Virus record (IMG/VR): IMGVR_UViG_3300035701_000002
DNA length: 11,397 nucleotides
Reading direction: 5' to 3' (one strand)
Origin: a virus
This document shows positions 2,337 through 10,429 of the stretch, one piece after another. The notes under the pieces are model-generated. The model was not told the DNA's origin and did not search any database. It saw only the letters and a program-made list of their open reading frames with translations. Position 1 is the first letter of the stretch. Each line of letters starts with the position of its first letter. The position numbers were made by a program, and so were the translations under genes.

Positions 2337-2385
2337 GGCCGACCGCTGTACTGTCCGTCATGAAAAGAACCTGTCGGAGGAGCAA

Positions 2386-3564
2386 ATGATCGAAGGTCGG
2401 ATGAACTTCATACTCGACGCTTTCTGGGGCTCGAGCGGCAAGGGGAAGACGTCGACGTGGCTCGCGGACCACCACAACGTGACGAACGTCTCGAGCTCGA
2501 ACTATCCGAACGCGGGCCATACGGCGCAGTTCGAGGACGGGACGAAGTTCGTGGCCAAGGCGATTCCGACGGCGGCCGTCCTGCGCAAGACTCGCGGCCT
2601 CGGGATGAGGTGCTTCATCTCCCCGGGATCCGGCTTCTCGCCGAAGCAGCTCCTGAAGGAGTGGGAGGAATGCGGCAGGCCGGACATGTTCGTCCACGAC
2701 CGTGCCAGCCTCGTGACCGAGGAGCACGCGGCCAGGGAGCGCGAGGGGTCCGAGTCGACCAAGCACATCGCGTCGACGATGCAGGGGTCCGGAACCGCCA
2801 TCGCGGACAAGGTCATGAGGAAGGCGGACGTCCAGCTCGCCGGCCACAACAGCGCATGGCTCGACGTCATCGCGGCGATGAGGCCGGAATCGTCCGACGA
2901 GATCAGGCGGAGGATTCAGGTCGTCCCGGCCATGGAGTTCAGGAACTTCGTCCACGGCGCGATCCGGGAGGGGAAGACCTGGCTTCACGAGGGATCCCAG
3001 GGCTACGCCCTCTCCATCGACCACGGGTCGCATTATCCGCACTGCACGAGCAGGAACTGCACGATCCAGGCGGCGATGGACCACATGGCGATCCCTCCCT
3101 CCATGGTCGGAGACGTATACCTCAACCTCAGGACTCACCCGATCCGGGTCGGGAACGTCGTGGAGGACGGCAGGCAGACTGGCTTCTCCGGAGGTTTTTA
3201 TCCGGACTGCCGGGAGATGACCTGGGAGCAGGTCGCGGCGGAGTCGGGAATGCCTCCGGCCGAGGCCGCGGAGCTTGCGGAGCGCGAGCGGACGACCGTG
3301 ACCAAGAGGATCAGGCGCGTCTGCACGTTCTCGTTCGAGGGCCTCCGAGACGCGGTCCGCGTGAACGGGGCGACGAAGCTCGTGCTGAACTTCATCCAGT
3401 ACGTGTGCTGGGAGGACAAGGGCCTCAAGGGCGGACGAGAGGCTTTCGAGAGCCTGTCAAGAAAGAGCCGCGAGTTCATCGACAAGGTCGAACGTGAGGC
3501 GAACCTTCCGGTCGTCCTCATCGGGACCGGACCGAACCACAACGAGATGATCGTCAGGGGGTGA
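2386..3564 (+). CDS. Adenylosuccinate synthetase family protein (PurA/PurZ-like), 392 aa, with a non-canonical P-loop and non-canonical GTP-specificity motif
   Basis: Family motifs seen in the translation: the P-loop GSSGKGK (canonical PurA has GDEGKGK); an exact NAGHT (catalytic His) at nt 2509-2523; EGSQGYALSIDHGSHYPHCTSRN (PurA has [22 protein letters not shown]) at nt 2989-3057; TKLV where PurA has TKLD (nt 3373-3384); and a C-terminal LIGTGPNHNEMI (PurA has ISTGPDRTETMI). A GGAGGAG Shine-Dalgarno motif lies 5 nt upstream. The TGA stop overlaps the GTG start of the next gene. Confidence 0.85.
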   Translation: MIEGRMNFILDAFWGSSGKGKTSTWLADHHNVTNVSSSNYPNAGHTAQFEDGTKFVAKAIPTAAVLRKTRGLGMRCFISPGSGFSPKQLLKEWEECGRPDMFVHDRASLVTEEHAAREREGSESTKHIASTMQGSGTAIADKVMRKADVQLAGHNSAWLDVIAAMRPESSDEIRRRIQVVPAMEFRNFVHGAIREGKTWLHEGSQGYALSIDHGSHYPHCTSRNCTIQAAMDHMAIPPSMVGDVYLNLRTHPIRVGNVVEDGRQTGFSGGFYPDCREMTWEQVAAESGMPPAEAAELAERERTTVTKRIRRVCTFSFEGLRDAVRVNGATKLVLNFIQYVCWEDKGLKGGREAFESLSRKSREFIDKVEREANLPVVLIGTGPNHNEMIVRG

Positions 3565-4040
3565 CCGTGGGCGGGGAGAAGAGCAAGCTCGTCCGTTTCT
3601 ACGAAGGTTCCGGGACGGACCATGCCGGGAGGAGCCTCAGGCAGATCTTGGCCTGGTCCGACGGCAGGCTGGAGTCAGTCCATGACTACATCCAGTGGCT
3701 GTTCCCGAACAGAAAGCCGAGCGACTTCAACCCGCACGCCCCGATCGTGACGCAGGACGACTCTGACGAGTTCAGGAGAAGGCCAGAGCTCCAGGGAGCC
3801 CTGTCAATGTCCGCGGACCGCATGGAGGCGTTCTACGACCTCGGGAGCACGAAGCCGTGGTGGGTAACCCCGTCCAACCACAACTATCTGAGGATAACCA
3901 GGGTCCTTCTCTCGCTGAAGGACCTGGGCCTCGAAGCGAGAGCCCTGTCCCTGTTTGAAAAGCTCTCGGACGTGTACACGGTGAACGTGGACGTGATTCC
4001 GTCGAAGACTGTGGCCCTCTGGATAAGTGCGATAGGATGA
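3561..4040 (+). CDS. OGFr N-terminal conserved-domain (opioid growth factor receptor-like) family protein, 159 aa
   Basis: The GTG start overlaps the PurA-like stop (GTGA). The motifs HDYIQWLFP(N)...NPHAP and HNYLRITRVLLSLKDLGLE match the human OGFR conserved region as I recall it (HSYIQWLFPLREPGVNWHAKP; NNLRITRILKSLGELGLE). GC3 is high. Confidence 0.7.
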   Translation: MTVGGEKSKLVRFYEGSGTDHAGRSLRQILAWSDGRLESVHDYIQWLFPNRKPSDFNPHAPIVTQDDSDEFRRRPELQGALSMSADRMEAFYDLGSTKPWWVTPSNHNYLRITRVLLSLKDLGLEARALSLFEKLSDVYTVNVDVIPSKTVALWISAIG

Positions 4041-7848: not shown

Positions 7849-8322
7849 ATGGGCTCAAGCGACCCGCCTGACGGCGAAATCAGCATAGAGATACCGCTCC
7901 CTCCGGGGACGGCCTCCTCGGGGCCGCCGGGAGGGAAGGATCACGGGCGCCTGAAGGCCTGGACGAACTTCATCGCCACCGCCGCAGCCCTGCTGGTCGC
8001 AGCAGCGGCGATACTGAAGCCACAGGACCACTCGACGGCCAGAGCCTCGTACGACGAGCTCAAGAAGGCTGTGGACGAGAACTCGCAGAACGACCGAAGG
8101 AACCACGAGGACCTCGTGGCCCTCAGGAACTACATGGACGGCTACCTGAAGGGGGCGGGGGCTGCGACGTCGCTCCCGTCGTCCATGCCGGTACCGTCGA
8201 CGTCCGGCTCAGCCAGGGCTATCCCCCCAGCTCCGGTCGCCACCATGCCTCCCCTCCCGGTACTCCATCCGGAGCCGAAGCCCCACAACCTTCCAGACTT
8301 CGACGCGGTGATGAAGAAATGA
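7849..8322 (+). CDS. Single-pass membrane protein with a Pro-rich C-terminal tail, 157 aa
   Basis: It is in the ORF track. The TM segment is WTNFIATAAALLVAAAAIL. The C-terminal region is Pro/Ser/Ala-rich. Its TGA overlaps the ATG of the downstream peptidase (ATGA). Confidence 0.55.
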   Translation: MGSSDPPDGEISIEIPLPPGTASSGPPGGKDHGRLKAWTNFIATAAALLVAAAAILKPQDHSTARASYDELKKAVDENSQNDRRNHEDLVALRNYMDGYLKGAGAATSLPSSMPVPSTSGSARAIPPAPVATMPPLPVLHPEPKPHNLPDFDAVMKK

Positions 8323-9260
8323 ACCTTCAAGGACTGACCGTCAACGGATACAGGGAAGCTCCGCAGGCCCTCTCGGACACCCACCCGAAGTTCGGGCTCG
8401 TCAGGGACGCGATGAGGGGGAGCGTCGACACGTACTACGAGGGCCAGTCCTCAGACCTGCGCGGCCTTTCCCCGAAGCGGCACAACCAGCTTCGCTCGAG
8501 CTCGTGCGTGGCCCAGTCGGTCGTGAGGGCGGCGGAGGTCAAGAGGATCCACAAGCTCTTCCTCACAGCGCAGGGGAGGGGGCTGGACATAGCGGCCGCC
8601 CTAGCCGAGGCTCAGGCCGGGCACGTCGCGCTCTCGAGGCTCGCCCTGTACTACCTGGCGAGGGAGATCATGGACCCCCCGGAGACGAGCCTGGACGAGG
8701 GGACGTACGTCTCGATGGCGGCCGAAGCCCTGAAGTCCTTCGGGGTCTGCAGGGAGGAAAAAAGCGCCACGAACCCGGCGGACCGAGCGTTCTGGCCGTT
8801 CGACCTGGGGACAGTCCCGGCTTCCGGCCGGGAGAGGATCTTCGAGTCCCCGACGTGGGCTGTCATGAGGGAAGCCTACCTCCACAAGATTCACGCCTGG
8901 TACAGGCTCGAGACCACCGGCGACGACCGCGTGAGGGACGTAATCCTCGCGCTTGCGGCGGGCAACCCCGTCGTCTACGGGACTCAGGTCGACGGGCAGT
9001 GGCAGACGTACGACGGTTCCGTCCCGCTCGGGACTCTGAAGAGCCGCGTCCTCGGAGGGCACGCGACCGTGCTCGAGGGATGGGAGCCGGGGAGGCAGCT
9101 CTTCCTCGGAGAGAACTCGTGGGGCGAGGACTGGGGCCTGACGGGGCCCGACGGGACCGGAGGGTTCTATGAGATCACTCCGGAGAAGATCGCCAGCAGC
9201 GAGTCGAACGACTTCGTGGTGATCGAGGGCGGCTGGGAACCGTGGAGGAAGGCGGCATGA
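8319..9260 (+). CDS. Papain-like (C1 family) cysteine peptidase, 313 aa, with no signal peptide
   Basis: The motif Q-x5-C in HNQLRSSSCVAQS matches the papain Gln19/Cys25 spacing. GGHATVLEGWE is like the papain His motif. GENSWGEDWGLTG...GFYEI matches the C1 hallmark NSWGxxWGxxGY. The first roughly 60 residues could be a prodomain. Confidence 0.75.
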   Translation: MNLQGLTVNGYREAPQALSDTHPKFGLVRDAMRGSVDTYYEGQSSDLRGLSPKRHNQLRSSSCVAQSVVRAAEVKRIHKLFLTAQGRGLDIAAALAEAQAGHVALSRLALYYLAREIMDPPETSLDEGTYVSMAAEALKSFGVCREEKSATNPADRAFWPFDLGTVPASGRERIFESPTWAVMREAYLHKIHAWYRLETTGDDRVRDVILALAAGNPVVYGTQVDGQWQTYDGSVPLGTLKSRVLGGHATVLEGWEPGRQLFLGENSWGEDWGLTGPDGTGGFYEITPEKIASSESNDFVVIEGGWEPWRKAA

Positions 9261-9814: not shown

Positions 9815-10429
9815 ATGGAACAGACAGACCTGATAGCGCTCATCGACCTGGACGGGACCGTGGCGGACTACGACTCCGCACTGATTGAGTCCATGAGGGC
9901 CATCCAGTCGCCGGACGAAACCCCGTACAAGAACCGGTACGAGGACGGCGGCGCAAGGGAGGAGATACCTCACGTTGAGGCCCGAAGGAGGCTCATCCAG
10001 AGGCAGCCTGGCTTTTGGAGGAACCTGAAGCCGCTGCCGGCAGGGTTCGAGGTGGTGGACGAGCTCAGGTCTCTCGGATTCTCGCTGCACGTCCTGACGA
10101 AGGGACCCGTCTCCACGCCCGTGGCGTGGAGCGAGAAGGTCGAATGGTGCCAGCGCCATCTCGAGGACGCCGTAGTGACGGTCACCGGCGACAAGAGCCT
10201 GGTGTACGGGCGTATACTCGTGGACGACTTCCCGCCGTACTTCACGAAGTGGCTGACCGTGAGGCCGCGCGGGCTCGTGGTGTGCATTGCCCACCCGTGG
10301 AACGCGGGGTATGCGAAGGGCGAGAAGCAGGAGCACCCGAACGTGCTCAGGTACGACGGGACGAACCGGGATGAGCTCAGGGCCAGGGTGCAGCGCGCGT
10401 ACGAGAGGACCGCGGGCGGGGGATTGTAG
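9815..10429 (+). CDS. HAD-superfamily 5'(3')-deoxyribonucleotidase-like hydrolase, about 204 aa
   Basis: The N-terminal LIDLDGTVADYD is HAD motif I (DxDGT), as in NT5C-type nucleotidases (DMDGVLADF). The second acidic motif is near the C-terminus (GRILVDDFP). The true start is the internal ATG at 9815 within the track ORF 9599..10429. GC3 is high. Confidence 0.7.
   Translation: MEQTDLIALIDLDGTVADYDSALIESMRAIQSPDETPYKNRYEDGGAREEIPHVEARRRLIQRQPGFWRNLKPLPAGFEVVDELRSLGFSLHVLTKGPVSTPVAWSEKVEWCQRHLEDAVVTVTGDKSLVYGRILVDDFPPYFTKWLTVRPRGLVVCIAHPWNAGYAKGEKQEHPNVLRYDGTNRDELRARVQRAYERTAGGGL

Follow-up and report, generated by a model that had tools for sequence, protein, structure and literature searches.

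A putative PurZ-type ligase of huge phages, encoded within a replication and nucleotide-metabolism island

PurZ is the phage enzyme that starts the synthesis of 2-aminoadenine (the Z base), which replaces A in some phage DNA. To our knowledge, the phages shown to have Z-DNA are all small siphoviruses or podoviruses, and in their genomes purZ lies beside datZ, mazZ and dpoZ. Does an enzyme of this type also belong to phages with far larger genomes? The question is raised by the virus record IMGVR_UViG_3300035701_000002 of IMG/VR, of which a stretch of 11,397 nucleotides (the window) was analyzed here. One open reading frame (ORF) of the window (positions 2386–3564, referred to below as purZ) encodes a 392-amino-acid (aa) protein, which an earlier note, made from the DNA letters alone, had assigned to the adenylosuccinate synthetase (PurA) family and considered possibly PurZ-like rather than a housekeeping enzyme. 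Both parts of that proposal were borne out by the diagnostic residues, by a 100% bootstrap separation from PurA and by the best PHROG and NCBIfam models, which are both PurZ models. Judging from its sequence, the gene is probably that of a large-phage ligase of the PurZ type; by analogy with characterized enzymes, the reaction that it most likely catalyzes would be the conversion of dGMP, Asp and ATP/dATP into dSMP.

The ORF is a real, strongly conserved gene, as follows from the exact copies found across samples and from the number of its homologues: an identical protein is encoded by 14 contigs, which come from no fewer than four independent samples and of which the largest, ERZ27247694 k141_4916728, has 108.8 kb, and more than 120 homologue clusters share 65–99% identity with the window protein. 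Relatives with 54–72% identity are carried by viral contigs of IMG/VR, which reach 436 kb in IMGVR_UViG_3300032782_000001, and by one ENA contig of 445 kb, ERZ27247941 k141_409429; the viral contigs of this clade measure 200–445 kb, and the GC content of the clade loci ranges from 36 to 65%. Phages of the clade are present in the samples JGI 3300036761, SRR11719878 and SRR9617868. The catalytic motifs of the window protein are intact, namely (i) Lys19 of the P-loop, (ii) His45 of NAGHT (residues 42–46), (iii) EGSQG and (iv) the TS(R)N block. All motifs quoted in the earlier note, among them LSIDHGSHYPHCTSRNC (the SIDHG...CTSRNC block), were recovered in the 392-aa ORF.

The protein matches Pfam family PF00709 (Adenylsucc_synt; 2e-35). 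Its best PHROG is 1211, annotated as ‘2-aminooxy adenylosuccinate synthetase’ (the PurZ family; 1e-60), and its best NCBIfam model is NF038379, PurZ (192.1 bits; 1.3e-56), on which the known proteins of PhiVC8, S-2L and Archimedes (the last a PurZ0) score 397, 350 and 325, respectively. The PurA equivalog models are missed, with scores of 140 vs. a cut-off of 396 for TIGR00184 and 185 vs. 368 for NF003295. Solved PurZ and PurA structures were matched by sequence at 1e-32 to 1e-30; the best match in the PDB is PhiVC8 PurZ (2.6e-32 when the single sequence served as query, 8e-44 for the clade profile), the other leading matches being P. horikoshii PurA and S-2L PurZ. In a Foldseek search with the AlphaFold model of the window protein (pLDDT 73, pTM 0.80), the top match was S-2L PurZ (7ODX; TM 0.72/0.80), and 43 PurA/PurZ chains were matched at E <= 0.001.

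The assignment is carried by the residues that distinguish PurZ from PurA. The window protein was aligned (MAFFT) with sequences taken from annotated records: PurA of E. coli and P. horikoshii and a phage-borne PurA; PurZ of PhiVC8, S-2L and SH-Ab 15497; the PurZ homologues of Bacillus phage vB_BpsS-140 and Burkholderia phage BCSR129; and PurZ0 of Gordonia phage Archimedes and Arthrobacter phage Wayne. PurZ states were seen at the following positions or regions. (i) In the P-loop, the catalytic Asp of PurA is replaced by Ser16. Here, every solved PurZ or PurZ0 protein shows G-S-x and PurA shows G-D-E, and a 2026 survey, in which Ser in place of Asp13 serves as a criterion of PurZ, reported Ser in 147/147 phage PurZ and Asp in 99% of PurA (PMC12884076); the earlier question of whether PurZ, too, lacks the P-loop Asp is thus answered in the affirmative. 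(ii) The segment IRVG is followed by an insertion, GNVVEDGRQTGFSGGFYPDCREMTW, that is present in PurZ and missing from the PurA proteins of E. coli and P. horikoshii; with its Tyr and Trp (Tyr272 and Trp280 in the window protein), it has been published as PurZ-specific and also figures among the top differential residues. (iii) Thr303 corresponds to T262 of PhiVC8, a position at which PurA has Gly. (iv) In the base-specificity motif, Phe336, Gln338 and Tyr339 correspond to F306, Q308 and Y309 of S-2L PurZ and to F295, N297 and Y298 of PhiVC8 PurZ, the PurA counterparts being Lys331, Asp333 and Val. (v) Pro252 corresponds to PhiVC8 P233, where PurA has Ser. According to a preprint and a further paper, which ascribe the choice of dGMP and ATP to these positions, the PurZ residues mapped in this way form the pocket for dGMP's 2-amino group and bind adenine.

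Both Asp residues that mark PurA, at positions 13 and 333, are therefore replaced in the window protein (by Ser16 and Gln338), and Gln338 also stands where PurZ0 keeps its guanine-specifying Asp (D305 in Archimedes and D326 in Wayne). At the positions that define PurZ, the protein has W14, S16 and T303; its aromatic residue is thus the Trp of PurA and not a Phe or Tyr. The loss of the GTP-specifying Asp had already been read from ‘TKLV’; the Asp is indeed absent, but the site had been misaligned by five residues (TKLV lies within GATKLVLNF, residues 328–336), and the true replacement is Gln338, not Val. The same states are found throughout the nearest relatives: among the 120 closest cluster representatives, the G-S-S P-loop and TTVTKR[IV]RR are kept in every one, and NF.QY in 118 (NF.YY in the other two). 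We count it in favor of a PurZ-type enzyme that these residues are near-invariant although the GC content of the loci varies so widely.

A neighbor-joining tree of 146 sequences (100 bootstraps) separated the Ser-type group from bacterial and archaeal PurA, P. horikoshii included, with 100% support, and the huge-phage clade holding the window protein was likewise supported at 100%; the branching order within the Ser-type group is poorly resolved. All 150 best matches among the 50%-identity representatives are G-S-x proteins. By sequence, the window protein is placed in the Ser-type PurZ group as a distinct, deep and very well-conserved branch that lies beyond the curated models; its identity to the PurZ of any cultured phage does not exceed 36%. 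PurZ0 branches outside the group formed by the window clade and classical PurZ (63–68% bootstrap), which bears on the idea that the gene encodes a PurZ0-type enzyme, with GTP as the phosphate donor and intermediate between archaeal PurA and PurZ. The PurZ0 proteins of Archimedes and Wayne do resemble the window protein in the P-loop Ser, the TTVT motif and a GTGP-like C-terminus, and the window protein retains both GTGP and the MPxEEA segment in their PurA/PurZ0-like form. Nevertheless, PurZ0 keeps the guanine-specifying Asp with Met in place of Phe (SMADQ/TMLDQ), whereas Phe336, Gln338 and Tyr339 of the window protein are those of ATP-using PurZ; the YPD part of the insertion is missing from PurZ0; and its structure, 7VF6, matches worse than PurZ by both sequence and fold. 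Moreover, PurZ0 is linked to dutZ and dmtZ, whereas no linkage to dutZ or a Dut-like gene was found in the window clade loci. A PurZ0-type enzyme is therefore highly improbable.

Two observations on the wider family were made in the course of this comparison. Several Ser-type relatives among the 50%-identity representatives (P0131, P0139, P0165, P0172 and P0221) keep the Phe, but their base-specificity residue is Glu or Asp (‘VITFAEY’, ‘ALMFADY’), a third state of the base pocket besides those of PurZ (N/Q) and PurZ0 (Met plus Asp). The purZ genes of five other relatives (P0122, P0123, P0125, P0132 and P0133) are interrupted by an intein, or by two, containing LAGLIDADG homing endonucleases and inserted just past the NAGH motif and, at the second site, further downstream, approximately in the middle of the protein; the ribonucleotide reductase (RNR) genes of the intein-carrying phages clustered with their purZ, apparently through intein similarity.

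With the PurZ enzymes of S-2L (7ODX) and PhiVC8 (6FM1/6FKO), the window protein shares the short PurA-type fold, the P-loop Ser, the TTVTK motif with its Thr, the Tyr/Trp-containing insertion after IRVG and the L-N-F-x-(N/Q)-Y pocket, with Gln as in S-2L. It differs from them in overall sequence (32–34% identity in the alignment) and in features that are atypical of classical PurZ: Trp14 before the P-loop Gly, in place of Phe/Tyr; Arg308, in place of Lys/Leu; and an MPxEEA segment and C-terminal GTGP shared with archaeal PurA, the two PurZ enzymes ending in GFGP. The nearest relatives from cultured phages, those of Bacillus phage vB_BpsS-140 and Burkholderia phage BCSR129, are approximately 32–37% identical and come from siphovirus-size genomes of 55–66 kb. 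Both share the PurZ-type pocket (LNFANY); in addition, vB_BpsS-140 has the MPxEE segment and a GTGA C-terminus, and BCSR129 has TTVTKRVRR with the same Arg. P. horikoshii PurA (2D7U/5K7X) is similar to the window protein in size class, fold and the C-terminal third (58 bits over residues 289–392), but has the catalytic Asp (WGDEGKG), GTVTGRRRR, the GTP-specifying Asp (TMLDK) and no insertion.

Several observations weigh against the PurZ assignment, some from the protein and others from its surroundings. The score on NF038379 lies below the cut-off of 300 bits, and the archaeal-type PurA model NF003295 follows closely at 185 bits. Structurally, P. horikoshii PurA fits about as well as PurZ (TM 0.68/0.82 in Foldseek); since the fold cannot separate PurZ from archaeal PurA, what it supports is the superfamily assignment. 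Finally, Arg308 stands where PurA has Arg303, a residue published to contact the ribose 2'-OH, so that selectivity for the deoxy substrate is not assured. The near-equal model scores and Arg308 could be expected of an auxiliary adenylosuccinate synthetase, which would join IMP and Asp into adenylosuccinate at the expense of ATP instead of GTP and boost the supply of AMP or dATP during infection, with no non-canonical base being made. Membership in the PurA superfamily, the resemblance of the C-terminal third (MPxEEA, GTGP) to P. horikoshii PurA, the lack of Z-cluster genes found nearby and the occurrence of true PurA paralogues in phages (published survey) are in keeping with such an enzyme. 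It would, however, have to share the Ser of all 120 closest representatives at a position where Asp is 99% conserved in PurA, and the S14D mutation of PurZ has been reported in a preprint to abolish substrate selectivity, implying a link between the Ser and dGMP use. PurZ states are also seen in Thr303 and in the Tyr272/Trp280 insertion, the scores fall under the cut-off of every PurA equivalog model, and the separation in the tree extends to archaeal PurA. We therefore regard an auxiliary synthetase as quite unlikely and retain the PurZ-type ligase as the preferred assignment.

The surroundings of the gene were searched for further Z-pathway genes with phmmer and then with profiles built from small-phage loci, in 1.47 Mb of partly redundant clade sequence reaching from about -20 to +20 kb of purZ. 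Over this span of approximately 20 kb to each side of the gene, the clade loci gave no match to DatZ, DpoZ or MazZ, and the Dut-like profile retrieved from the clade loci only one ordinary dUTPase, encoded beside RNR (locus L089). In 35 small-phage PurZ loci used as a positive control, DatZ was detected in 23 and DpoZ in approximately 25, adjoining purZ; the MazZ seed drew no homologues in the control loci, which makes the test for MazZ a weak one. A DatZ alignment was also run against IMG/VR; of its 184 matches there, the 80 best all lay on contigs of 65 kb or less. The earlier suggestion that the rest of the genome be searched for such genes has thus been followed, with a negative outcome, for about 40 kb around the gene, which is approximately 10% of each huge genome, so that the absence of a Z-cluster holds locally.

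Dut-like genes also adjoin purZ in small phages, and DutZ, which hydrolyzes dATP and dGTP, is a published component of the Z pathway. A related arrangement was observed in the myxobacterium Chondromyces apiculatus DSM 436 (contig18; L078:6387-13774), where a prophage-like element carries a tyrosine integrase, a helix-turn-helix repressor and an AAA_25 protein. The PurZ homologue of this element shares 43% identity with the window protein, has WGSSGKGK and LLNFAQY, and shows translational coupling with a protein of 255 aa that has a dUTPase domain at its C-terminus, in a manner resembling the published DutZ arrangement. We count this arrangement, too, in favor of a PurZ-type enzyme.

Another explanation is that PurZ chemistry here serves some purpose apart from the rewriting of the genome. 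The enzyme might act on GMP or dGMP and so deplete or divert the guanine nucleotide pool, produce 2-aminoadenine nucleotides with an anti-defence or regulatory role, or lead to partial Z. DatZ and DpoZ were missing from the 40 kb around the gene in approximately 20 genomes, the nearby replisome genes are of the DNA polymerase III (Pol III) clamp-loader type and not PolA, Arg308 could tolerate the ribose 2'-OH, and the slot beside purZ carries anti-defence-like accessory genes, e.g., those encoding NADAR proteins. A special polymerase, on the other hand, is not required, since the all-Z genome of S-2L is made with a non-selective PrimPol and E. coli polymerase I incorporates Z without discrimination (published). 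The absence of Z partners applies to about a tenth of a 200–445 kb genome, and a core role in DNA synthesis would fit well with how strongly a stand-alone enzyme is conserved among hosts that differ widely in GC content. Taken together, we consider a role apart from the genome rather unlikely.

If the enzyme is a PurZ-type ligase acting in DNA synthesis, the following pathway may be proposed by homology with the PurZ proteins of PhiVC8 and S-2L: (i) ATP or dATP would phosphorylate O6 of dGMP, leading to dSMP; (ii) a host or phage adenylosuccinate lyase would convert dSMP into dZMP; and (iii) kinases would convert dZMP into dZTP, to be inserted opposite T in the phage DNA. The substrates, the deoxyribose selectivity and the presence of Z in the phage DNA are what we infer here. 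The clade consists of 200–445 kb genomes in which, unlike in the classical PurZ phages, datZ, mazZ and dpoZ do not adjoin purZ; exclusion of dATP would therefore need genes located elsewhere or other enzymes. Among the products of conserved genes near purZ, the T4-gp1-like dNMP kinase, the DHH phosphoesterase and the NT5C deoxynucleotidases are candidates only. Tentatively, and with less than even confidence, we propose that this huge-phage lineage writes its DNA wholly or partly with 2-aminoadenine by means of a stand-alone PurZ, a Pol III-type replisome and a mode of dATP exclusion unlike DatZ, DutZ and DmtZ (involving, e.g., NT5C, DHH, the dNMP kinase or orphan proteins).

The analysis thus identifies a gene for a PurZ-type enzyme as a tightly conserved core gene of a widespread huge-phage lineage. 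Were the proposal true, replacement of A by Z would extend to genomes ten times larger and to a different type of replisome, and would point to a novel way of keeping dATP out of DNA; were the DNA of the clade ordinary, PurZ chemistry would have a second use. Because the clade falls under the NCBIfam cut-off for PurZ, it is missed by curated models and labelled ‘adenylosuccinate synthase’ in public data. Among the papers searched, none ties PurZ to huge phages, and surveys counting ‘over 2000’ candidate Z viruses may already include the clade. An experimental entry point is offered by the homologue of the cultured C. apiculatus DSM 436. Clade contigs have been binned into bacterial metagenome-assembled genomes (MAGs). 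Two of these contigs, JBAZJM010000002.1 (L076) and DATBQC010000015.1 (L077), sit in MAGs named Lentisphaeria and Methylobacter, where the gene is called adenylosuccinate synthetase; their placement is either a case of mis-binning or a hint at the host.

The features of the window are listed in Table 1. Genes were picked in a GC3-aware manner or taken from called genes, as picking of the longest ORF favored antisense ORFs at high GC; the minus-strand ORF at 1554-2306 of the window was rejected as an artefact of this kind. Scans of the window for tRNA, Rfam families, promoters and PADLOC systems added nothing.

Table 1. Position of purZ, its diagnostic motifs and the neighboring genes in the window.
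Feature	Position	Strand	Remarks
PurZ-type succino-amino-deoxyadenylate synthase homologue (putative)	2386..3564	+	392 aa; from the ORF list; huge-phage clade
Shine-Dalgarno sequence GGAGGA	2376..2381	+	4 bases 5' of the purZ ATG; read from the sequence
P-loop WGSSGKGK, residues 14-21	2425..2448	+	Ser16 instead of the PurA catalytic Asp13; equivalent to PhiVC8 S14
PurZ-type insertion GNVVEDGRQTGFSGGFYPDCREMTW	3151..3225	+	After IRVG; Tyr272 and Trp280 equivalent to PhiVC8 Y244 and W252
TTVTKRIRR, residues 303-311	3292..3318	+	Counterpart of PurA GATTGRRRR
Base-specificity motif LNFIQY, residues 334-339	3385..3402	+	Counterpart of PurA LTKLDV (MAFFT)
C-terminal GTGP, residues 380-383	3523..3534	+	Retained from the PurA ancestor; GFGP in PhiVC8 and S-2L
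Conserved orphan, 244 aa	1602..2336	+	Directly 5' of purZ, same orientation
OGFr_N-domain protein	3561..4040	+	Pfam PF04664, 1.5e-13; start overlaps the purZ stop
Conserved orphan, 86 aa	4156..4416	+	In 12 clade loci
Conserved orphan, 191 aa	4400..4975	-	In 18 clade loci; divergent from the ThyX gene; no Pfam/PHROG match
ThyX-like flavin-dependent thymidylate-synthase homologue, 444 aa	4991..6325	+	Pfam Thy1, 5e-30, two stretches; in 20 clade loci
NT5C-type 5'-deoxynucleotidase, HAD family	9815..10429	+	Pfam PF06941, 3e-12

Throughout the clade, purZ sits in a huge-phage island of replication and nucleotide-metabolism genes, not in a bacterial purine operon. The conserved gene order comprises (i) a class II RNR, (ii) the Pol III delta' and delta subunits, (iii) orphans, (iv) an orphan of approximately 245 aa, (v) purZ, (vi) a variable slot (OGFr_N, NADAR or nothing), (vii) an 86-aa orphan, (viii) an orphan of approximately 190 aa on the opposite strand and (ix) a ThyX-like protein of approximately 445 aa. 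Farther on, genes for NT5C deoxynucleotidases and for a DHH phosphoesterase are found, along with those of a T4-gp1-like dNMP kinase and of an endolysin-like protein. When the context was widened by approximately 10 kb on each side, by anchoring on RNR and on a conserved 230-aa protein, one flank was found to encode a split NAD-dependent ligase, a RecD2 helicase and Mre11-like and PD-(D/E)XK nucleases, the other flank being variable. Within the window, the stop codon of purZ and the GTG with which the next gene starts share bases (GTGA, 3561-3564); this overlap, together with Pfam searches of the neighbors, agrees with the description in the earlier note of a tightly coupled operon without purine-biosynthesis genes.

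The orphan preceding purZ has 208 homologues, all within the clade and without a Pfam family. It was considered as a hidden Z-pathway hydrolase, an idea that was dropped when no function could be assigned to it; its AlphaFold2 model, although usable (pLDDT 75.8, pTM 0.72), has no recognizable fold. The slot following purZ, filled in the window by the OGFr_N-domain protein, is occupied in relatives by a NADAR-domain protein (L002:11313-11888 and L022:11215-11781; a match to PADLOC PDC-M42C) or by nothing. The two proteins had been merged into one family by single linkage, a merger that was discarded, since BLASTP and Pfam show them to be unrelated; the slot looks like a hot spot of accessory genes, possibly with an anti-defence role.

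The ThyX-like protein scores 41.5 bits on TIGR02170, far under the cut-off of 87.9, and has ‘SEKSTRY’ in its N-terminal half and ‘RHR’ in its C-terminal half; it may be a fused, pseudo-dimeric or a functionally diverged ThyX. One or two NT5C-type genes are kept near purZ across the clade, together with the DHH phosphoesterase and the T4-gp1-like dNMP kinase (e.g., L004:16347-18118), and a second NT5C paralogue was found farther downstream on a longer contig (L072:19556-20122). In three clade loci (e.g., L081:13844-14362), a 172-aa phosphoribosyltransferase, possibly involved in purine salvage, is encoded beside RNR. The split NAD-dependent DNA ligase (L081:14577-17055) consists of a gene for the adenylation and OB domains and, on the other strand, a gene for the HhH and BRCT domains. 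Finally, a 313-aa protein with a weak match to papain-like C1 peptidases (Pfam 5e-05; PHROG 16701, 3e-09) is encoded on the plus strand of the window (8319-9260) and is kept in some relatives (L104:5440-6366).

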